From assembly GCF_056746865.1 (NCBI RefSeq), contig NZ_JBWKMP010000003.1: DNA of 64,000 nt; one strand, written 5' to 3'. The stretch comes from a plasmid. Below the pieces are notes generated by a model, which had not been told where the DNA came from, made no database searches, and saw only the letters and a list, made by a program, of their open reading frames with translations. The stretch's first letter is position 1; each line of letters begins with the position of its first letter. The translations under genes and the position numbers were made by a program. Of this stretch, positions 3,212 to 54,809 are shown in pieces.

Positions 3212-3818
3212 ATCTAATTATGTTCTTCTTAATTATGATGAGTTAAACGAAAAGGGGCTGGCAAAACTCGTCAAAGAAATCGGTAAAGGAGGCTACAAGA
3301 TAGCGAGGGTGATCCCCGCCAGTAATGGCAGGAAGAAAGACGGGATCATGACGCGCACGTTTACCCTTATCGGAATCGATGAGCAGACGATGGACGTTCA
3401 GGTTAATGATACTGGTGATATTTCTGGTGTAAAACTGAACGGAAAAATTGTTCCTTTCAAGCCAGTTAAAACGCTGATGGCTTTAGGGCAATCACTGGCT
3501 GCTTTATTTAATAAAGGCGCATCATCATTTCAGAAATCATTGGCGCGTAAGTTAGCTCGTGCGGCGAAAGATATTGATGATGGGAATAAGAAAATAAAAG
3601 GCGTTAAGTCCAATGCGCAGAAACTAGCAGAGGCAAAGGAATCTCGCGATGCGATCCGCGAGGATATTGAAAGGGCCAAAGAAAAATTAAATCAGGTGCA
3701 AGGTAATTCAGACCGCGCAACAAGAGAAACTGAAATCATTAGAACCGAGATGGCGCAGGAACTGGCGAAAACTCGCGTATTGAAAGAAGAAATAGCGCGC
3801 CTGGAGGAAGATGCATGA
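3201..3818 (+). CDS. Hypothetical coiled-coil protein (Hdf position in a dar-like operon)
   Basis: ATG at 3201 preceded by aaggagac; charged coiled-coil C-terminus; ORF-track start at 3177 is probably an over-extension. Confidence 0.4.
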   Translation: MSNKSNYVLLNYDELNEKGLAKLVKEIGKGGYKIARVIPASNGRKKDGIMTRTFTLIGIDEQTMDVQVNDTGDISGVKLNGKIVPFKPVKTLMALGQSLAALFNKGASSFQKSLARKLARAAKDIDDGNKKIKGVKSNAQKLAEAKESRDAIREDIERAKEKLNQVQGNSDRATRETEIIRTEMAQELAKTRVLKEEIARLEEDA

Positions 3819-12575: not shown

Positions 12576-12604
12576 TTGATCTTTCTAATGTTCAGGCTTA
12601 TATT
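12576..12604 (+). promoter_or_regulatory. Sigma70-like promoter with an operator motif in the spacer, driving the immI-like module 1
   Basis: TTGATC, 17-bp spacer containing tttctaatg, then TATATT. Confidence 0.45.
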
Positions 12605-12611
12605 CATGCCG

Positions 12612-12850
12612 TCGTAGCAAATTCTGCGACCAGGTTTGACAGCCTGAATACTTACGCGGACAACCGCACATTTCCGATATTGCGGTATTTTTGTGTCCGT
12701 AAAACCACGTTACGCCCGAATTATGGTGGGGCGTGATGGGGAGGCTTCGGCCTGCTGGTTTCGTAAGTGCCAGTCTGTCAACCCTGTCACGTCCTGCCAC
12801 CTGTTTGACAGCGGGTCGCAGGTTGTTTATCAACTTACGAGGCCGTAACT
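12612..12850 (+). ncRNA. Candidate c4-like antisense RNA / structured leader upstream of the icd-like gene
   Basis: About 240 nt without an ORF between promoter and icd-like start; tttgacag (12632, 12811) complementary to ctgtcaac (12773); P1 immI uses a C4 antisense RNA at the equivalent position. Confidence 0.35.
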
Positions 12851-39979: not shown

Positions 39980-40615
39980 TCAGATATCGGCCTTATTCGG
40001 AATTTTATCAGCCACCAGCGGCAATAAAGCCTTCGCCATTTCATGAACCAACATGGCATCAATGACGCCTAGCGTATGGCCCGGTTTAATGTTTAATGCC
40101 GCCTCAAGATGACTCCTTTCCAGGCCGCTTTTCTCGGCTTGTTTATGACGATCTGGTGTAATAACTTCGCCCAAAACGCGGCTAATTTTTTCTCGTAATT
40201 GCTGGGTGCCAGCACACTTGATCGCTGTATCGTGGAGACGGTTAACCAGTTCGCGATAAACATGCGGCTTAATGCGGATACGTTCACCGGTGACGCCCTT
40301 TCCTGGCGCTGGCACCGAACTATCCGGATAGTTGCCAGCCTCGTAAGCTACCCGCAGCCAGTGCATGAATGTTTCAGTGGACACACAACCACAGTCCACA
40401 TCGATTTTTCCGCGTTGCTGTTCCAGCCACTGCTCAAAATTCAATCTACACGTATTACTTTCATGTTGCTCTTTTTGTCTCAAGGCCAGCATCTGCTGGG
40501 CTATTTCCAATACTTCATCTGCCGTATATCCAGCACCGTGACCATACATTTCGATACGGGAAATAATCTCTGATATACGCTCTTCAGTGATTCTGGTCAT
40601 TTCTTTTTGCGCCAT
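39980..40615 (-). CDS. Hypothetical protein sharing a ~45-aa segment with the C-terminus of the DUF4406 fusion
   Basis: KPHVYRELVNRLHDTAIKCAGTQQLREKISRVL versus APHIYRELVNALRDIAAVYHGTEQLRERLAHTI in 52539-53150. Confidence 0.5.
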   Translation of the reverse strand: MAQKEMTRITEERISEIISRIEMYGHGAGYTADEVLEIAQQMLALRQKEQHESNTCRLNFEQWLEQQRGKIDVDCGCVSTETFMHWLRVAYEAGNYPDSSVPAPGKGVTGERIRIKPHVYRELVNRLHDTAIKCAGTQQLREKISRVLGEVITPDRHKQAEKSGLERSHLEAALNIKPGHTLGVIDAMLVHEMAKALLPLVADKIPNKADI

Positions 40616-40968
40616 TTCTTTTCACATTCCTTAGTCCATTTTTCAATGTTCATTTTGGCAATATCAGTCATTCCATCACCTAAGAAATACTTTTTCCGGT
40701 ATGTCTTGCACTTAAACCACACTACAACAGCCACCAGCCAGAAAATAAAAGGCCATACAGCAATACCAACGACAGCCGCGATAAAGCCCAATAGCCATAA
40801 ATGAAGCTCTCCAACTTCTGTTTCCGGCAATATTCTTAAAGAATTAAACAGCAGGCTGAACGAATGGTCGTATGCATTGGCGGTATAAGACATGCAATCC
40901 ATATAATTAAAGTCATAGCCTGCGGCTGCCGCCCATAATGGGCGGTCAAGAAAATGTTTTAGTGTCAT
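40597..40968 (-). CDS. Hypothetical membrane protein
   Basis: Two or three hydrophobic helices, basic C-terminus. Confidence 0.45.
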   Translation of the reverse strand: MTLKHFLDRPLWAAAAGYDFNYMDCMSYTANAYDHSFSLLFNSLRILPETEVGELHLWLLGFIAAVVGIAVWPFIFWLVAVVVWFKCKTYRKKYFLGDGMTDIAKMNIEKWTKECEKKWRKKK

Positions 40969-40977
40969 TATATAAAT

Positions 40978-41271
40978 TTAAGGTTCAGACCAGTTATCTT
41001 CAATAGCAATGCTTAATCTTTGTAGCCATTCTGCTAATTTCAGCATTGCTTCTCTTTCGCTTAAACCACGAGGAAAATCATCAAGCGAAATTGTTGGCTT
41101 GAATCCCCCGCAATTATCCATTTCAACTGTCAGATTTTGTTCCAGCACGGTATTTCTTACGCGGCTATTGTGCCGAAGCAAATATACTGAGCGTGATTTA
41201 TTGGTTTTGTGGTCTAGCTTATATTCGGTAAGTATCATCTGGCTTTTGCCATGATTATTACCTCTCCACAT
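40978..41271 (-). CDS. Hypothetical protein (start trimmed to the internal ATG with RBS)
   Basis: ATG (MWRGNN) preceded by tgaggtaag; the longer 129-aa ORF-track version overlaps an upstream small ORF. Confidence 0.4.
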   Translation of the reverse strand: MWRGNNHGKSQMILTEYKLDHKTNKSRSVYLLRHNSRVRNTVLEQNLTVEMDNCGGFKPTISLDDFPRGLSEREAMLKLAEWLQRLSIAIEDNWSEP

Positions 41272-41278
41272 ACTTACC

Positions 41279-41401
41279 TCACTTAATAAAACAACTCCAT
41301 GCGTAGTTGATGATTTTTTCCCACGTAATATAAATCTGCACTCCGGCAGTAAAACCAAAGCCAACAATTGCTGAAAAAATCAAAACATTTACTTTTGACA
41401 T
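41279..41401 (-). CDS. Small hydrophobic peptide (40 aa)
   Basis: MSKVNVLIFSAIVGFGFTAGVQIYITWEKIINYAWSCFIK; below the ORF-track cutoff; stop lies next to the start of 40978-41271. Confidence 0.3.
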   Translation of the reverse strand: MSKVNVLIFSAIVGFGFTAGVQIYITWEKIINYAWSCFIK

Positions 41402-41449
41402 TATAAATTTTCTCTCGGTGTCGTAGGTGATAGCACCATAATTGATAAT

Positions 41450-41683
41450 TTAGTGAGTTAGCAGTTCCATTTTTTTGATGATTTCCGCATGAGCATCATC
41501 GTTATCAACACTTAGCTCGTTTAATGCTTCTCGCACTACATCAACTTCTTCAGGCTGAAAGAAGTCGTCGCGGTAATCACCAAATAGAACCGAAACCAGC
41601 CTGCCACCAGCAACATCAAGATTGGCGCTAACAGGTGGCTCTTTGCCATCCTCAAATTCGACTACAAAAGTTAATTTTCCCAT
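41450..41683 (-). CDS. Hypothetical acidic protein (77 aa)
   Basis: ORF with conserved operon orientation. Confidence 0.45.
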   Translation of the reverse strand: MGKLTFVVEFEDGKEPPVSANLDVAGGRLVSVLFGDYRDDFFQPEEVDVVREALNELSVDNDDAHAEIIKKMELLTH

Positions 41684-41759
41684 CGTTACCCCCAGAAGAT
41701 AAAAATAGCGGCAATCGCCATAGCTACGCCTACAATCGCAAATGCTTCAGGCCAGCTTA

Positions 41760-42017
41760 TTACCTCACCTCCAGTCTCCATACCGCCTGACCAATCCGGC
41801 TGGCATGGGTATCTTTGGATACTGTTCCATCTTTAGCCAGCTCCATAAGAATTTTGCGCAAATCTGCCGAACGCCATTCTTCATCAGGAAATTCCTTCTC
41901 CATTGCCAACCGCAGATTCCAGGTTGCTATCGTGAATGGATATTCCCCGCCGAGAGCTTTCTCTTGCAGGGCAGCACGGGAACGTATCACCTGCAAAACC
42001 TTCTCTTTTACATCCAT
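41760..42017 (-). CDS. Hypothetical protein (start set at the ATG overlapping the upstream stop)
   Basis: Translational coupling with 42017-42715. Confidence 0.4.
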   Translation of the reverse strand: MDVKEKVLQVIRSRAALQEKALGGEYPFTIATWNLRLAMEKEFPDEEWRSADLRKILMELAKDGTVSKDTHASRIGQAVWRLEVR

Positions 42018-42715
42018 CATTTTGCCTCCTGCGGCGGTTCTGGTAGCGGCATCCAGTGTGATGGTATCCACGACGCACCAGGTATTACCCACCCATCATT
42101 AGCGTCAGGATGCCCCGGGATGTAAGTCGCCCATTTCATTCGCCAGTCACCTTTCCTGTCAAACTCCCTGGCAACAAGAACGGCTGTTTTGGTATCCGGC
42201 ATTCGCTCACTACAGCTTATCCAACTATCCGGAATTACCGGATAGTTGCCCGACAGCTTGTTCAACTTGTAAGTCTGGCTTACAGGTTTGGCACCATGAA
42301 GCATGGCGTCGCTCCGCTCTATGCCATCCAGCGCGATTCGCAGTGCCTGAATTGTGGTAGAGCTATCGTTTGGGGCTATTCCATATCGCTCGAATACAGC
42401 TAAATGGTTGCGCATAATCTCAGGCGTAAGCTCTTTGTAAGCATAAGCAAGAGACTCTGATGCATTATCCGGCACAACCGACGCAAGCGCGGCAGCATAA
42501 ACAGGAATAACGTCCACTTGCTCTTTATTGCTTTCATCCGTTAAAGCCCAGAATAATTTCCCGGCCGGATGTTTGAAAATATAAGCAATTGGTTCTGCTT
42601 CCAGCGATGCCAGAGCAATTTCATACGACCGTCGCTCAATATTGTCTCGCACGTCCAGGCTGCTGATACGCTCTTTGATTTCTTTAATCAGTTCTTTGTC
42701 GGTTAAAGTGGTCAT
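42017..42715 (-). CDS. DUF551-like protein
   Basis: C-terminal ...DGWVIPGASWIPSHWMPLPEPP resembles the DUF551 C-terminal motif common in enterobacterial prophages. Confidence 0.5.
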   Translation of the reverse strand: MTTLTDKELIKEIKERISSLDVRDNIERRSYEIALASLEAEPIAYIFKHPAGKLFWALTDESNKEQVDVIPVYAAALASVVPDNASESLAYAYKELTPEIMRNHLAVFERYGIAPNDSSTTIQALRIALDGIERSDAMLHGAKPVSQTYKLNKLSGNYPVIPDSWISCSERMPDTKTAVLVAREFDRKGDWRMKWATYIPGHPDANDGWVIPGASWIPSHWMPLPEPPQEAK

Positions 42716-42725
42716 AAATTATGCC

Positions 42726-42962
42726 TCAGTTGTATCCGATTGGATTAACCGCAACAAGAACGCCATCCGCGAACAAATCTTTAATGAGGTGTTCGCTCGG
42801 CTCGCCTTTTTCGTACTCTTCAATAAGGTAAGTGTCTCCATCTTCATTGATATAAACAGGAAGGATGGAGCCGTTGATAAAGTAGGTTCCGTTGTTATCG
42901 AGGATTTTTGCCTCGGCGATTTGTTTTTTGGTAAAACGCTCTTCTTTTGTCAAAGTTGCCAT
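42726..42962 (-). CDS. Hypothetical protein (78 aa)
   Basis: Internal ATG start MATLTKEERF. Confidence 0.4.
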   Translation of the reverse strand: MATLTKEERFTKKQIAEAKILDNNGTYFINGSILPVYINEDGDTYLIEEYEKGEPSEHLIKDLFADGVLVAVNPIGYN

Positions 42963-42963
42963 A

Positions 42964-43182
42964 TCAGCTTTCCTTATATGGGTTGATTTTGTTGTGCAAT
43001 GTGTTGAACGACGCCCATACCACGTCGTTATACAATTCAATAACTGGCTCAATTATTTTCCCGATTCCCCATACCAGAATTAACGGGGATATCGGTATCA
43101 TCAACACGATAAACAGAATGAGAAACAGAAATTCTGTTATTCGGCTTCTTTGCGGATATTCTTTTCTGAATAATGTTGGCAC
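42964..43182 (-). CDS. Small membrane protein (GTG start)
   Basis: RBS aaggagag 4 nt upstream of GTG; hydrophobic core FLFLILFIVLMIPISPLILVWGIG. Confidence 0.35.
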   Translation of the reverse strand: MPTLFRKEYPQRSRITEFLFLILFIVLMIPISPLILVWGIGKIIEPVIELYNDVVWASFNTLHNKINPYKES

Positions 43183-43183
43183 A

Positions 43184-43405
43184 TCACTCTCCTTTGCCCG
43201 CAGCTTTCGCCTGCTCTTTAGCAAGTCGCTCCGCTTCTCTGAAATCCCAATCCACTCGATGTGCGATATCAATTGCAGAACGCACGGTTCGTTCAATTAG
43301 CGTATCCAGGTTATCAATTGTCATTGCCATATCTGGATTTCGAGATAAAATCTCCGCCCTCTGAATCTGCCAGTTGTTACAGGTTTCAAGTAATGAGTTA
43401 GCCAT
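43184..43405 (-). CDS. Hypothetical protein (73 aa)
   Basis: Internal ATG start MANSLLETC. Confidence 0.35.
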   Translation of the reverse strand: MANSLLETCNNWQIQRAEILSRNPDMAMTIDNLDTLIERTVRSAIDIAHRVDWDFREAERLAKEQAKAAGKGE

Positions 43406-43406
43406 A

Positions 43407-43595
43407 TCACTCTCCTTTAGTGCGCAAGTGGTTTTTCCAGCGGTTTTGCGCCGCGCTGGGCTTTTTGCAAAAACCACAATCCATCATCCCGTAATATTTC
43501 ATCAACCCCATCCGTCGGTTGCTGAGTCTCACCCACTGCCAGACGCCAGGAGCGTTTCTACGAACTAACAGAATCTTTGCTTTACGGTTTTTCAT
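43407..43595 (-). CDS. Small basic protein, copy 1 of a tandem pair (MKNRKAK...)
   Basis: Shares N-terminus MKNRKAK and the DNA block ttacggtttttcat with the upstream copy. Confidence 0.3.
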   Translation of the reverse strand: MKNRKAKILLVRRNAPGVWQWVRLSNRRMGLMKYYGMMDCGFCKKPSAAQNRWKNHLRTKGE

Positions 43596-43768
43596 CTTAC
43601 AGCGTACCCTTTCTTCCGCCTGTTCTGTGACGCAGTAGGCTTACGCTTTGCGGCAAAAGCCACCTGACCAAATGGATGGAGTACCGCTATCTTATGGTTG
43701 CTAATAACCAGCTCCACCACACGCACAGGTCGCTGTAAAAAAAGTCGTTTTGCCTTACGGTTTTTCAT
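43592..43768 (-). CDS. Small basic protein, copy 2 of a tandem pair (MKNRKAK...)
   Basis: 58 aa, stop overlaps the start of copy 1 (ATGA). Confidence 0.3.
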   Translation of the reverse strand: MKNRKAKRLFLQRPVRVVELVISNHKIAVLHPFGQVAFAAKRKPTASQNRRKKGYAVR

Positions 43769-43940
43769 CGCTTTGCTCTCCTGCGTCTCTTTGCTGCTCG
43801 TCGTGCCGCTGCAATACCGGTATGGCGGCGCTTTGGTGCCGGGATGATGTTGTCAGCCATCAGGACATACGGCTTTGCAATTAGCGCAGAAGCCCAAAAA
43901 CGAGTCGGGTACGGTAACAAGCCGATACATGCCACACGCA

Positions 43941-44693
43941 TTACTCACCTCCTTTGATGCGAATGCCTGCGGCGCGGATTGCAGCGATGACTTCAGAAAC
44001 TTTGTATGCCATTACCGTTTGGTAATCATCGTGAAAATCTGTTCGATGAAGCATGCTGCTACGTTCCGGGAGCGATATTTCCCGAGCATCCAGTTCCTTA
44101 ACGCGTTCCTCCAGTTCGTAGACCCTGCATTGTTCTCTATCATCAATCAGATATACCCCAAGACATTCGCTTTCTACCCAACCGCCAAAATCATGATCGT
44201 AACGCTCACATGAAAACTCACCGTCACCGTCCTTTGTTGGAATGGTGTAACTATCTAATGGGCCACCATATGTCGGCACATTTCCCAATGTTGGATGCTC
44301 AATCCACATGAAAAATGCACGTCCGGTTATTGGGCAAATATCTGGCCGCCATTGGTTACGAACAGCCTTGGTTTCGGATAATTCTTCAGCGTGTTGTTTT
44401 ACTTCCTCAAGCTCAACTCTCAGCTTCCCTACCGTTAGCGCAATATCCTCGTTCTCCTGATCGCGGCGTTTTATGTATTGCTGGTTTCTTTCCCGTTCAT
44501 CCAGCAGCGCCAGCACGGTTTCTGGTCCGGTCAGAAATTTGAAGGCGTTGAGCGCATCAATATCCACACCGTAATCTTTAAGTTCCTGTTCACTTAACAA
44601 ATCATCATCAGCTGGCAACATTAACAGGCGTTCCATTGCTGGAATTGCACGTTCCGCCGCCTCACGCAGTGCCTGGTAATTAATTTCGCTCAC
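43941..44693 (-). CDS. ead/Ea22-like family protein
   Basis: Contains [37 protein letters not shown] and C-terminal [10 protein letters not shown], shared with 50855-51529. Confidence 0.55.
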   Translation of the reverse strand: MSEINYQALREAAERAIPAMERLLMLPADDDLLSEQELKDYGVDIDALNAFKFLTGPETVLALLDERERNQQYIKRRDQENEDIALTVGKLRVELEEVKQHAEELSETKAVRNQWRPDICPITGRAFFMWIEHPTLGNVPTYGGPLDSYTIPTKDGDGEFSCERYDHDFGGWVESECLGVYLIDDREQCRVYELEERVKELDAREISLPERSSMLHRTDFHDDYQTVMAYKVSEVIAAIRAAGIRIKGGE

Positions 44694-45352
44694 TGGTTGC
44701 CTCCTTTGCGAAGCTGGGCAGCAAAGTCAACTAACCACTCAGTCATTTCAACCTTCCCTACCAGGTCGGAACCAGGGTGCATACAGCAATCACTCTGCGC
44801 CGCTTTGAAATCCTTACACTCATATTCTTTGGCCACCAGATTTTTTGCAGCTTCTATAGCAGCATCCACCCCCTGCGCCCGCACTTCAGCCAGAAAAGCA
44901 TCGGTAGCTGGAGTTTCGCTGTGGTGTAGGGCATCGTTGATAATCATTGCAGCAACACCAGCCTGCCCTGCATCCGTGACCGACACATGCTCAAGAGTTA
45001 CGGCCATTGCGTGTTTCAGCCCAGCGTTCTCTGCCACCAGCGCAGCGATATTAGTCTCAAGCTCTGAAATTCGGCACGTGGCATCAATATTTGTGTCCTC
45101 CAAGCACTTAATTTCACCAAGCAGCTCCAGTGCAACCTTTGGGTTGAACGCGGCAACATGACGAGCGTTGTTCTCTGCATTTTTCTGTCCATCAAAGCCG
45201 GTCCATTTGATAACGTCTTCACATCGTTCATCACCGGGCGTGTGCACCGCATAAGTACCAGTATCCGTCGAAATAAATGCGACCCATTCGTCTGGTGTTG
45301 CCTTTTCTGCCGCCTCACGCAGTACCTGATAGTCAATTGTCATTCTCGCCAT
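44690..45352 (-). CDS. ead/Ea22-like family protein
   Basis: [14 protein letters not shown] block and C-terminal FAAQLRKGGNQ shared with paralogs. Confidence 0.5.
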   Translation of the reverse strand: MARMTIDYQVLREAAEKATPDEWVAFISTDTGTYAVHTPGDERCEDVIKWTGFDGQKNAENNARHVAAFNPKVALELLGEIKCLEDTNIDATCRISELETNIAALVAENAGLKHAMAVTLEHVSVTDAGQAGVAAMIINDALHHSETPATDAFLAEVRAQGVDAAIEAAKNLVAKEYECKDFKAAQSDCCMHPGSDLVGKVEMTEWLVDFAAQLRKGGNQ

Positions 45353-45966
45353 CCTTCACAGTTGTAATCACTACAGCCTTCAAAATCATATGGGCTGTAC
45401 TGCCAGGTTATTTTTCCGCAATGCGGACAATTCCAACGCACCTTCCCGCTTCGCGACTTCTTTCTTCTGTTCTGCTCTTTCAACCAGTCAGGCATGATCA
45501 AACCTGCGCCCTGAACCATTGTTCTGCGGTTAAAGTTATTGATATTGAACGTCCGGCGCTTTGCTGCATCAGCAATGGAAAATGGCAACCAAACTATTCC
45601 TGGTTCGTTTTTGTTGGCGACGCTAAAGATGGTCGCTTTACTGAAGTCATCTGTTGGCAATCCACCGTGTTGAAGCCAGTAAACATCGTTGCCGTTCCAG
45701 CTACCTTTTTTGTAGGCCACATACGCAGTGCAATCTGACTCAATCAGGCTTTCTGTAGGGATGTACTGGCAATCAACGTGCCACACAGCCATTGCATCCA
45801 CGCTATCAGCGCAAACAGGCTGATCGATATCTCGCCCACAATTCCAGGCTTTTTGGGCTTCTTCCAGCGTGTAAACATGAGCGCGATCGATATCAGAGCT
45901 ATAACCATTGCCGTTATGGCAATGGAATGAGGCGTTATTACCCACAGTTTCACGCAAGCACATCAT
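45340..45966 (-). CDS. Hypothetical protein with a C-terminal zinc-ribbon-like Cys cluster
   Basis: CPHCGK...C..C motif; start trimmed to an internal ATG. Confidence 0.4.
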   Translation of the reverse strand: MMCLRETVGNNASFHCHNGNGYSSDIDRAHVYTLEEAQKAWNCGRDIDQPVCADSVDAMAVWHVDCQYIPTESLIESDCTAYVAYKKGSWNGNDVYWLQHGGLPTDDFSKATIFSVANKNEPGIVWLPFSIADAAKRRTFNINNFNRRTMVQGAGLIMPDWLKEQNRRKKSRSGKVRWNCPHCGKITWQYSPYDFEGCSDYNCEGWRE

Positions 45967-45980
45967 GTAAAAACGGTTAC

Positions 45981-46220
45981 TCACTGGTTGCCTCCTTGGC
46001 GGAGTTGCGCTGCGATGCATGAAAAAAAAGACTCCCGAGTGTGACAGTTAAGAGCTGGTGCGAACGCCGCGTTAAGAACGGCGGCATCACAGCCGTCATC
46101 AATATAGAGCGCAATTTTTTTCTCCAGGCGCGCTTTGGCTTCCTGCAACTGCATACCCCGGCACGCACGCGGGATATAATCAGCAATTTGAGCGATAGCT
46201 TTTTCGTTCTGTTTAAACAT
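45981..46220 (-). CDS. Small protein carrying the Ea22-family C-terminal motif (AAQLRQGGNQ)
   Basis: Motif shared with 44690 and 49817. Confidence 0.4.
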   Translation of the reverse strand: MFKQNEKAIAQIADYIPRACRGMQLQEAKARLEKKIALYIDDGCDAAVLNAAFAPALNCHTRESFFSCIAAQLRQGGNQ

Positions 46221-46416
46221 GCTTCACCTCGATAGGCTTGATGGTGTCTAACAGCAGTCGGCGGCGCGTATTTTCTGCAAAATGGCGGCGTCCAGTTTCT
46301 TTGTGGTAAAACTCGTTTTTGCCGACGACCCACATCCGCTCTGTTTGGTGCAGTTTTTTTACCTTCGGGCCATCTTTGGTGATCACGGTACCGGTATGGG
46401 TTTTTACGATTGTCAT
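46213..46416 (-). CDS. Hypothetical small protein
   Basis: 67-aa ORF. Confidence 0.3.
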   Translation of the reverse strand: MTIVKTHTGTVITKDGPKVKKLHQTERMWVVGKNEFYHKETGRRHFAENTRRRLLLDTIKPIEVKHV

Positions 46417-46499
46417 GCCACTACCTATTCGAACAGATGAACGAGACAGGCCGATGCTCGTCCACCTGAAAAACTGACGATTTGATGCATACTCACGGT

Positions 46500-47228
46500 T
46501 TATTCCTGAATGCGCTTAAACTCGATTACCCACACCCAGGGATTAGCGTTCCAGCTTTCTTCACCATAGATGGATTCCCACAGGCGCTGGAACGCAACCT
46601 TGGCCATTGCGAAATCCCCCTTGGGAGTAAGGAATGTTCCCGGGTGATCAGGAAGCAAACTTCCAGCAGGCGGAACGCCCTCAGCCCTTGCATCGCATTC
46701 GCTGATATCGTTCAACCGTTCAACGCGCACGTTGGTAATTTCCAACAGAATGCGTGATGCCCATCGCGGCATGTGAATTGATGGACGCCACCCACCATCA
46801 AACTTTTCATTCACAGTGTGAGGTTTCCAGTCGGCATCATCGGGTATCGACCATAAGCCGTAATCACCAGGTTTTTGCTCGCAACTGGCCCGATAAATCC
46901 TTGCTGCGTTCTTCTCATCGCCACGACAAAGGTTGTCGTTCCAGTCCACACTGCAACCATCCTCATTGCCTAATATCGCCCATGTTTCACGAACCCAAAT
47001 TCGATCGCCGACGATACCAAATGGGCAATTGAAAACACTGCTTACACCATCAGCCCCGTACCACTGAAAACCTGCACCAATTTTTCTAACCATCACTGGT
47101 GCTTCTGGACCAACTTCCGCAGGCTGATTTTTCATTATCCGCCGCGTCTGCGTTTTCCTTCCTTCGAGGATGGCCCGGACCATCTCATCGTTAAAAATCA
47201 TCCCGCGTTCTTTCATTTTTTGATCCAC
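46500..47228 (-). CDS. ASCH-domain-like protein (start may be the internal MIFNDEMV)
   Basis: EMVRAILEGRKTQTRR resembles the ASCH GxKxxExR signature. Confidence 0.45.
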   Translation of the reverse strand: MDQKMKERGMIFNDEMVRAILEGRKTQTRRIMKNQPAEVGPEAPVMVRKIGAGFQWYGADGVSSVFNCPFGIVGDRIWVRETWAILGNEDGCSVDWNDNLCRGDEKNAARIYRASCEQKPGDYGLWSIPDDADWKPHTVNEKFDGGWRPSIHMPRWASRILLEITNVRVERLNDISECDARAEGVPPAGSLLPDHPGTFLTPKGDFAMAKVAFQRLWESIYGEESWNANPWVWVIEFKRIQE

Positions 47229-47232
47229 TCCA

Positions 47233-48228
47233 TCAGTTATTGAACGTGATCACTCCGCGCTCGATGGCGAAGTCGAAAAGCTGGTTGGCGGCTACGTAAA
47301 GGCGTATGCCATGTGCTTTTTCCCATGCCCGGACATCGTTTTCTGCGCTTCTGGCGCATTCATCGCAAAGAGGAACGGCCCAGCGATCGTGTTCGTTTAA
47401 CGAGCGGGCGCGGTACATGAACGGGTGATTAACTTTGCCTCCGCATCCGATGCACGGACGAGAAATCACAAACCGGAGATAAGCCGGGCTTTTACCGAGA
47501 ACCGCTTTTGGTCGGCGCATATACAGCAGGCCGGAATCCTCATCTACAGACAGGTTGACGATCTGCTCTGCGGTTATGTCCACCAGCTCACGGGTGCTGT
47601 GCTCCCAGGTGATATCCGATTCTTTCAGTGTGCCGGTAGGGATTTCCTGTTTTGGCTGACAAAATGCAATGCGACCGGCTTCATCTGGCAGCTCGTCTTT
47701 CAGATTCCGGCGAATGGCCCAAAAAGTGAGTTCAACCATGCTCAGATCGCGTTCTGGCGGTAGTTTTAACTCGCTCGCAGCCCAGTTCATAACCCAGTTG
47801 GCACGATTCAGGGATAACTGGTCATCCAGCTTGCCGTACCCCTTCATCATGTATTCCGCATCATGCTTCCAGCACAGGCGAACGGCAGAGCCGTTATAGA
47901 AATGAGTGGTTAGCTGGTGGCTGCAATCGCGCTTATCGTGCGCCTGGCAATCGTGGATATTGGAACTTACCCAATGAACAAGCGAATCTTCACCGCCTAA
48001 TGCGTTAAATACGCGCTCGCTTTGAAAAAATGCTTTCAGAGACTGGTTGGCAACCAGCGAATAGTTCAGATCCACTACGCCATCTGGCGTGTTTTCAGCC
48101 TGTTCGCGCGGAAGTGGAGAGATAATGAAACGGCGACCTGCGCCAATGTAGTTGCTGGTGGGCTTGTCTACCGGAAAGACAGCCACACCAGCTCCGTTTA
48201 CGAAATGAGGTGTGATTATTGCACTCAT
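47233..48228 (-). CDS. Hypothetical 331-aa protein with C-terminal Cys-rich motifs
   Basis: CIGCGG...C..C pattern; no confident family. Confidence 0.45.
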   Translation of the reverse strand: MSAIITPHFVNGAGVAVFPVDKPTSNYIGAGRRFIISPLPREQAENTPDGVVDLNYSLVANQSLKAFFQSERVFNALGGEDSLVHWVSSNIHDCQAHDKRDCSHQLTTHFYNGSAVRLCWKHDAEYMMKGYGKLDDQLSLNRANWVMNWAASELKLPPERDLSMVELTFWAIRRNLKDELPDEAGRIAFCQPKQEIPTGTLKESDITWEHSTRELVDITAEQIVNLSVDEDSGLLYMRRPKAVLGKSPAYLRFVISRPCIGCGGKVNHPFMYRARSLNEHDRWAVPLCDECARSAENDVRAWEKAHGIRLYVAANQLFDFAIERGVITFNN

Positions 48229-48270
48229 AATGTATACCGACTCTGTTTTGTTCCGAGCGGTAAAATAATA

Positions 48271-48300
48271 TGTTAGAAAATTAAAATCAATATTCTAACA
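48271..48300. promoter_or_regulatory. Operator palindrome TGTTAGAAAATTAAAATCAATATTCTAACA
   Basis: Inverted half-sites of the dispersed motif, upstream of the minus-strand operon. Confidence 0.55.
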
Positions 48301-48332
48301 CGGTTTTGAGTGCATAAACGATGTGTTCAGGA

Positions 48333-49019
48333 TTACGGCTGGCCTCCCTTCACCTGCTTTAGCGTCAGATTTCCGCAAAAAACCGCGCCAGTGTCTATGT
48401 AGTGCTGGTTCCAGAAAGATTTCGGGCTGTTTACTGGCGTATGCCCGAAAATAAAGCTATCTGCACCAGTGATCATTCCACCAACACCATCAACCGCGTC
48501 ATAAAATCGCTCACGCCGCCAGGTAACATTGAGATCGCTAACAGGTTTACCAAACTGGTATTCGTTATCAGGATAGTCGGCATGGGCTATAACGATAGTT
48601 TCATGCCCGGTGTTCAACTCAATGATATAGGGTAAACGTCTTACCAGCTCCACCAGCGCCCTGGCTAATATTTCCCGATCAGCGTCCAGCATGAAGAACC
48701 ATTGGCCGCCATTCATTAGCCAGTTATTCACGTTGCCTGCGGGGCTTAACGCATCGATCATTAATCGCTCGTGGTTTCCCATAACCGACCGAAACCAGGG
48801 CATCTGCAATAGCTCCAAGCATTCAACATTTTCGGTGCCGCGATCGATAAGGTCGCCAACCGATATCAGTAAATCCTGTGTCGGGTCAAAGTCCACACGA
48901 TGAAGTTCAGACATCAATCTGGTGTAGCAACCATGCAGATCACCAACAACCCATATGTTTCTGTAGCCTGAACCATCAATACGGCCATATAAATTCACTT
49001 CATGCAGCGCCTGGGTCAT
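48333..49019 (-). CDS. Ser/Thr protein phosphatase (calcineurin-like metallophosphatase)
   Basis: GDLHGC ... GDLIDRG ... GNHE motifs. Confidence 0.75.
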
Positions 49020-54496: not shown

Positions 54497-54602
54497 GAAA
54501 ACACACAGTTGCGCCCTGGCATTATCGTGGGGTATATTTCTACGGCACCTTAGAAAAACGGGTGCCGGGATTGGAACCCCGGATAATGTCAAAGGCGACA
54601 CA

Positions 54603-54624
54603 GACGCCGAACGCGTCTTTTTTT
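54603..54624 (+). terminator. Rho-independent terminator
   Basis: gacgc-cgaac-gcgtc followed by ttttttt. Confidence 0.6.
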
Positions 54625-54639
54625 GTGTCATGCCATCGC

Positions 54640-54809
54640 ACAGCCATACTTAGCGTTTAGCTCAGAGATCAATGGTAGTGCTGGCTGGGCTGCCGAAAGG
54701 CAGGCCGGTTCCCTTTGACGCCGGTAGTTCCAACCCAGTCAGTGCTACCGCCATTGAGATTGGAACCTCACGCGGTAGCTCCTTAACTTAGTCAAAGGAG
54801 GCTGCCAAT
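54640..54809 (+). ncRNA. Candidate c4-like antisense RNA / structured leader of the immI-like module 2
   Basis: ORF-free ~170 nt with long-range complementarity (tcaatggtagtgctg / cagtgctaccgccattga; gttccaa / ttggaac) directly upstream of the icd-like RBS. Confidence 0.35.

Follow-up and report, generated by a model that had tools for sequence, protein, structure and literature searches.

Paired small basic genes of the PHROG 1380 family in the lambdoid accessory block of a P1/D6-like phage-plasmid

Genes and overlaps at the locus

The stretch of DNA analyzed here (64,000 nucleotides, hereafter the window) belongs to a P1/D6-like phage-plasmid, with phage D6, P1-like elements, SJ46 and RCS47 as its best large-scale matches. 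Within it, a minus-strand block of lambdoid 'ea'/exo-xis-type accessory genes runs in the order ead/Ea22-like genes, ORF0, ORF1, ORF2, a 73-aa acidic gene, and genes with DUF4014 and DUF551. Across 40500-48500 the minus strand showed no promoter-like site, and the genes of the block abut or overlap, which makes it a single operon. Elsewhere in the window, two separate C4 antisense RNA genes were identified on the plus strand (12598-12650, 12719-12804, 54545-54623 and 54668-54755), one of them with its a1b1 target and the other adjoining an isrK-like sRNA, so that this P1-like element may carry two immunity modules of the immI/ant type. Three tRNA genes clustered at 26040-26969 (plus strand) are typical of P1-like phages. 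The features of the central part of the block are as follows.

43941..44693, minus strand: ead/Ea22-like gene, upstream; its C-terminal tail carries the ORF0 ribosome-binding site
43765..43941, minus strand: ORF0, 58 aa, pI 12.0, PHROG 13831, ending in ..APKRRHTGIAAARRAAKRRRRAKR and a stop
43778..43782, minus strand: AGGAG Shine-Dalgarno-like site, 9 nt upstream of the ORF1 ATG and inside the ORF0 tail
43765..43768, minus strand: ATGA stop/start overlap of ORF0 and ORF1, read from the sequence
43592..43768, minus strand: ORF1, 58 aa, MKNRKAK family, MKNRKAKRLFLQRPVRVVELVISNHKIAVLHPFGQVAFAAKRKPTASQNRRKKGYAVR
43755..43768, minus strand: head block ATGAAAAACCGTAA, ORF1 copy, by exact-match scan
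43737..43743, minus strand: run of 7 T in ORF1, read from the sequence
43592..43595, minus strand: ATGA stop/start overlap of ORF1 (TGA, 43594-43592) and ORF2 (ATG, 43595-43593)
43407..43595, minus strand: ORF2, 62 aa, MKNRKAK family, MKNRKAKILLVRRNAPGVWQWVRLSNRRMGLMKYYGMMDCGFCKKPSAAQNRWKNHLRTKGE
43582..43595, minus strand: head block ATGAAAAACCGTAA, ORF2 copy, by exact-match scan
43412..43417, minus strand: AAGGAG Shine-Dalgarno site in the last ORF2 codons (..TKGE and stop), 6 nt before the ATG at 43405
43184..43405, minus strand: downstream 73-aa acidic gene (MANSLLETC.., PHROG 10585), in a slot filled differently among loci

A preliminary description of this locus had proposed that two minus-strand ORFs starting with MKNRKAK share a DNA block, overlap by ATGA and are highly basic paralogues, and each of these points is borne out. 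Both starts and the shared strand agree with the sequence and the ORF list, and the overlap lies at 43592-43595. The shared block corresponds to a 14-mer, ATGAAAAACCGTAA (ttacggtttttcat on the plus strand), which has just two exact occurrences in the 64-kb window, one at each ORF start, while none of 100 shuffles of the window contained two or more matches. ORF1 and ORF2 align by BLASTP with 37% identity over 54 residues (E=5e-10), both match phrog_1380, and they have in common a second motif near the C-terminus, KP(T/S)A(S/A)QNR. Their basicity is pronounced, with a pI of 12.0 and a net charge of +15 for ORF1, and a pI of 11.3 and a net charge of +14 for ORF2.

Directly upstream of the pair lies a third very basic ORF, ORF0, which is absent from the preliminary description. 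A strong ribosome-binding site, AAGGAGGTGA, stands ahead of it, and its tail is Arg-rich (..HTGIAAARRAAKRRRRAKR). ORF0 was considered as a homologue of the ORF1/ORF2 family and rejected (hhalign probability 0.07). Among related arrays, an ORF0-like ORF overlaps the first family copy by ATGA in 108 of 142, and 107 arrays keep ORF0 whole, starting with ATG or GTG; some loci lack ORF0, apparently through exchange between linker-like gene ends of the K-G-(G)-E-stop type. With a pN/pS of 0.36-0.75 in its own frame and about 1 in the others (e.g. 10/9/19 differences by codon position), it gives a moderate coding signal that points in the same direction as that of ORF1 and ORF2 but is weaker.

Family membership and codon-level conservation

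Both ORFs belong to PHROG 1380, a phage orthologous group without assigned function and with a 62-position profile. ORF1 matches phrog_1380 with E=6.5e-23 (residues 1-58 on profile positions 1-60 of 62) and ORF2 with E=1e-40 (residues 1-62 on positions 1-62 of 62). The family signature reads M-K-N-R-K-A-K ... [IV]-S-N-[RH]-[RK] ... K-P-S-A-A-Q-N-R-W-K-N-H. In a test based on the motifs NRKA[KR], SN[RH][RK] and AAQNR, both ORFs were recognized as family members, with ORF1 presenting TASQNRR where the family has SAAQNRW. The residues that are invariant in the family alignment (N3, R4, N26 and R52) are present in both, and distant members retain M-x-NRKA[KR], [IV]SN[RH][RK] and [KR]xSAAQNRWKNH.

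The range of the family is narrow. An exhaustive HMM search over 1.84 billion representatives returned only 49 clusters at E<=0.001, and a word-indexed search returned 60 family clusters, all from Escherichia or Salmonella. By tblastn, the family was detected in 146 of 50,697 phage records, mostly Stx phages, the other carriers being phiV10-like phages, TL-2011b, D6, RCS47, Salmonella phage Sasha and a Yersinia phage; by type, the carriers are Escherichia/Salmonella lambdoid, Stx, phiV10-like and P1/D6-like elements. The segment found in the window is also present in 933W, VT2-Sakai, TL-2011b/c, phiV10 and 633 of 5426 complete E. coli genomes. Three distant members occupy other accessory slots, outside the ea block: a gene near terminase (L148, 4001-4591) for a 196-aa protein that begins with the family domain and has an extra C-terminal domain; a gene in the nin region after the replication genes, two genes before HNH_3 and DUF551 genes (L149, 4001-4204); and a gene in the gap between the lysis genes and terminase (L150, 4001-4219). 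A 264-aa 'four-repeat' protein from the exhaustive search (P0085) was considered as a fused array and discarded as a low-complexity repetitive protein.

The pair is therefore real and already catalogued. Proteins identical to ORF0, ORF1 and ORF2 occur on at least 1000 contigs each, under the names 'hypothetical protein' or 'prophage protein', and exact-protein entries have been deposited as WP_000797279.1 (identical to ORF2), YP_009624945.1 and UniRef A0A2H4TWJ6 and A0A0H0H4G1. The literature search turned up no mention of the peptide, its RefSeq accession or its PHROG number. The preliminary suggestion that such a pair is easily missed by annotation holds, since the calls are inconsistent among NZ_CP172147, RCS47, VT2-Sakai and 933W. 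In NZ_CP172147 PGAP calls only ORF2, in phage RCS47 RefSeq calls only ORF1, and ORF0 is unannotated in both. The VT2-Sakai 'orf8' is over-extended to 155 aa (compare phrog_12350), and in the original annotation of 933W the family ORF (L002, 3662..3850) has no CDS of its own and lies partly under the L0068 CDS, which starts at 3780.

In order to assess conservation at the protein level, 145 IMG/VR loci were fetched and 78 distinct DNA versions of family members were extracted for codon analysis. Invariant amino-acid columns show free synonymous variation across these versions (N3 AAC/AAT; L9 CTT/CTG/CTA; S26 AGC/AGT/TCA; N27 AAC/AAT, 46/32; G37 GGG/GGA/GGT; R59 CGC/AGG/AGA/CGA). Differences concentrate at the third codon position in each comparison: 7/6/21 for ORF2 versus the L131 type (pN/pS 0.22), 18/14/30 and 16/11/27 for ORF1 versus its relatives ORF1b and ORF1c, and 18/16/33 for the C versus D types. 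Overall, pN/pS is 0.22-0.46 in the MKNRKAK frame and roughly 0.6-1.9 in the other two frames; for ORF1 against ORF1b and ORF1c the corresponding values are 0.35 and 0.84-1.38. Distant relatives, moreover, spell the N-terminal NRKA motif with quite different codons (ATGAAGAATCGCGCGGCTAAA, ATGAATAACCGCAAAGCC). The synonymous variation, third-position bias, in-frame pN/pS and recoded distant motifs together argue for conservation of the ORF1 and ORF2 lineages at the protein level, and the codon comparisons show that both frames are under purifying selection. Conservation of the frames in related elements, which the preliminary description had named as a check, is thereby confirmed: the frames are kept and bear the marks of purifying selection in relatives. 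Alternative-frame ORFs in the region (e.g. 43417..43536) have no comparable codon support. On this comparative evidence ORF1 and ORF2 are clearly supported and ORF0 more weakly, and it is highly probable that ORF1 and ORF2 are real coding paralogues of the PHROG 1380 family.

Constraint is distributed unevenly along the protein. Within types, residues 1-10 have a pN/pS of 0-0.36 and the C-terminal motif one of 0.11-0.23, compared with 0.45-0.50 in the middle. This middle region holds an S-N that is invariant and a Gly that is conserved. Its ratio (about 0.45-0.5) gives no support to positive selection, which had been considered, and indicates a region under relaxed constraint.

Two kinds of frame disruption were observed. 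In two loci (L067 and L081), a frameshift starting where the window has its T7 run cuts ORF1 to 22 aa (around 2327-2395); this could be a sequencing error, a pseudogene or phase-like variation. In P0054 and P0060, the MKNRKAK head and AAQNRWKNH tail are kept while the middle is read in an alternative frame (..GETQQPTDGVNETLRDDGLWF..), a frame that is open for 39 codons in the window (43417-43536, minus strand). These frame-switched middles are probably compensated frameshifts, and either the middle tolerates gross change or both copies are pseudogenes.

Array organization, junctions and linkers

Family copies were counted in the 145 IMG/VR loci, two annotated records and the window. A single copy is present in 74 loci and two copies joined by ATGA in 61; one locus has two joined copies and a separate third, another (L112) has three joined copies of 58, 60 and 63 aa, and in 2 loci ORF1 is truncated to 22 aa by a frameshift. 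The array of L112 (1194-1737), with its two ATGA junctions, is the longest observed. Copy-to-copy junctions in related loci consist of the -4 (ATGA) overlap in 64 of 64 cases. The C-terminal tail type tracks position in the array and not lineage. Tails ending in ..NRRKKGYAVR and a stop are followed by another copy in all 64 instances, and those ending in ..NRWKNHLRTKGE and a stop are found on the last or only copy in all 134. In the window, ORF1 combines an ORF1-type body (..ISNHK..) with the 'internal' tail (..QNRRKKGYAVR, stop) and ORF2 carries the 'terminal' tail (..QNRWKNHLRTKGE, stop). B-type and ORF2-type bodies are found with either tail, and an ORF1b-type body occurs as a single gene with a terminal tail (P0052). 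Since bodies swap between the two tails, recombination within the conserved KPSAAQNR segment may be inferred, and arrays would grow, shrink and reshuffle via recombination in the conserved head and KPSAAQNR segments. No description of position-dependent tails or of arrays of one to three copies was found in the literature search; these tails and recombining arrays constitute a modest new descriptive point.

The same data bear on the status of ORF1, which could be a decaying duplicate, either young or serving as a ribosome carrier to ORF2, with only the terminal (ORF2-type) copy being functional. Such a reading would account for the weaker profile match of ORF1, the missing WKNH part of its C-terminal motif, the frameshift from the T run in two loci, the 74 single-copy loci and the omission of ORF1 by PGAP. 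It is improbable, however, given the third-position bias and the in-frame pN/pS of ORF1 relative to both relatives, a frame kept open in 51 of 53 occurrences (the frameshift affects 2 of about 53 loci), and the fact that an ORF1b-type body also exists as a single gene with a terminal tail. We retain the reading of two functional paralogues.

The signals at the junctions differ along the chain in which ORF0, ORF1 and ORF2 are linked by ATGA overlaps. The AGGAG site ahead of ORF1 sits in a junction, ..CGCAGGAGAGCAAA(A/G)CGATGAAAAACCG, that is conserved across loci, while ORF2 has only a weak, distant GAAAGGG 11 nt before its ATG. The anatomy of the ORF1/ORF2 overlap makes it a likely site of translational coupling, and termination-reinitiation coupling would then run from ORF0 through ORF1 and ORF2 to the downstream cargo gene. 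The terminal tail and its TGATATG junction precede at least 8 different, unrelated downstream genes. Many genes of the operon (41000-46500, minus strand) end in K-G-(G)-E-stop or ..GGNQ-stop (e.g. at 43405-43420 and 43941-43960), because their final codons contain the Shine-Dalgarno site of the next gene (AAAGGAG); similar K-G-(G)-E-stop linkers close the Ea22-like gene and ORF3. These Shine-Dalgarno linkers look like exchange points of the mosaic.

Taken further, this organization could mean that head and tail are DNA-level mosaic linkers between accessory cassettes, combining short stretches of homology for recombination with ribosome-binding sites, and that the ORFs between them are incidental and do not encode functional proteins. 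Head and tail are indeed far more conserved than the middle, the tail holds the ribosome-binding site of the next gene at one junction serving at least 8 cargo genes, similar tails are found on the Ea22-like gene and ORF3, and the middles of P0054 and P0060 have switched frame. Yet synonymous variation is abundant in head and tail (pS 0.51 and 0.60, against pN of 0.07 and 0.19), distant members spell the same motifs with different codons, the middle has its invariant S-N and conserved Gly, the AlphaFold model (below) is confident, and there is neither an RNA structure signal nor an Rfam match. Largely refuted by the codon analysis, this alternative is very improbable. Rfam 15 covariance models gave 0 matches at E<=1 on either strand of 43000-44200, and shuffled versions of the junction RNAs fold as well as the real ones (z about -0.4 to +1.0), so that a non-coding RNA or RNA structure at the junctions was rejected. 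The Pas sRNA, described in a preprint, was set aside as concerning other loci.

Predicted fold, putative binding and known systems

A first AlphaFold model, built on a 20-sequence alignment, was poor (pLDDT 66.6), and its Foldseek matches, Acb4 among them at E above 1, are meaningless. With 29 more diverse sequences, pLDDT rose to 84.5, with a pTM of only 0.54, and the elements predicted were H4-11, E20-23, E28-32, E38-43 and H48-59. The products would accordingly be compact helix-three-strand-helix proteins, a predicted fold for which no significantly similar solved structure was found. Sequence-profile searches of Pfam, NCBIfam and PDB with ORF1 and ORF2 returned nothing informative, and no nucleic-acid-binding family was matched in Pfam, NCBIfam, PDB sequences or by fold. 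A C2H2 zinc finger (zf-C2H2_jaz), hit weakly and in ORF2 only (C40, C43, H56), was rejected: the score of 13.3 bits (E=0.096) is below the cut-off of 22.6, the cysteines (columns 47 and 50) are not conserved in the family, and a second histidine is absent.

The invariant residues are polar or basic (N3, R4, N26, R52) and not hydrophobic, and the net charge is about +14. From this charge and the conserved Asn and Arg residues, binding to a polyanion may be inferred. Such binding, with RNA or DNA as the most likely partner, may take place early in phage development, and the middle regions, which are less constrained and differ between paralogues, would give different specificities. As judged from sequence features, binding to nucleic acid by the MKNRKAK proteins is a tentative proposal that falls somewhat short of probable, and the high positive charge also fits binding to an acidic protein, ribosome or membrane surface.

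An acidic protein target is, in fact, a serious rival. The proteins would then be real, but directed at a host or phage protein or acidic surface in a host-takeover, anti-defence or superinfection-related role, with the middle tracking the targets. The use of accessory slots by these genes (the ea/exo-xis block and also, as in L149 and L150, the nin region and the lysis-terminase gap, respectively), a middle far less constrained than the ends, the presence of several divergent paralogues side by side and the lack of a match to any nucleic-acid-binding family would all be compatible with such a role. Since pN/pS in the middle stays at about 0.45-0.5 and not above 1, however, there is no signal of diversifying selection, and no known anti-defence protein was matched significantly by structure (Acb4 had E above 1 with a low-confidence model). 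On balance we consider a protein target unlikely, with more in its favor than either of the alternatives weighed above. The explanation that we prefer as a whole, in which functional, translationally coupled paralogues form recombining arrays and bind a polyanion, is evenly balanced between being right and being wrong. A bolder version, in which the family would represent a new fold class of mini-proteins that bind nucleic acid with sequence or structure specificity and are used by temperate enterobacterial phages in recombining arrays, with the target set by the variable middle and with head and tail acting both as protein motifs and as recombination and coupling joints that admit new cargo genes to the early operon, is a long shot.

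The present value of these observations lies mainly in annotation, since ORF0, ORF1 and ORF2 are called inconsistently by current pipelines. If characterized, the family would contribute to an understanding of the accessory block of lambdoid and Stx phages, a poorly understood region that affects whether lysogeny or lytic growth is chosen and, through this decision, the production of Shiga toxin. It would also illustrate cleanly how phages can duplicate and swap small genes by way of short conserved ends.

ORF1 and ORF2 agree with the other members of PHROG 1380 in size and in the three motifs, and nothing in their sequences sets them apart. [quoted passage not shown] According to the same passages, the stretch that contains the family gene in 933W split the ea22 gene, and the passages retrieved from PMC8614690 by term search do not mention the MKNRKAK family. 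The exo-xis proteins have no sequence relationship to it, and its helix-three-strand-helix prediction is unlike the homeodomain-like, TraR-like and Tn916-Int-like folds proposed for them (PMC8614690).

Among beta-sheet DNA-binding domains, those of the AP2/integrase-N-terminal type present the same core topology (three antiparallel strands followed by a helix) and are also basic; membership was rejected for want of a significant structural superposition. The N proteins of lambdoid phages, which are arginine-rich-motif RNA-binding peptides, are, like the MKNRKAK proteins, very basic, short and early lambdoid products. The N peptide contains Arg and Trp and binds boxB. In contrast to N, the genes described here are not at the N position beside pL/nutL, but deep in the accessory block after the ea22-like genes, and a folded beta-sheet core is predicted for their products. 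Assignment to the N-type ARM antiterminators was rejected on the absence of a Pfam or NCBIfam match and on the wrong gene position. Nevertheless, the Q-N-R-W-K segment of the family, located in a predicted helix, recalls the lambdoid N peptide, an analogy that may serve as a lead and not as a claim of membership.
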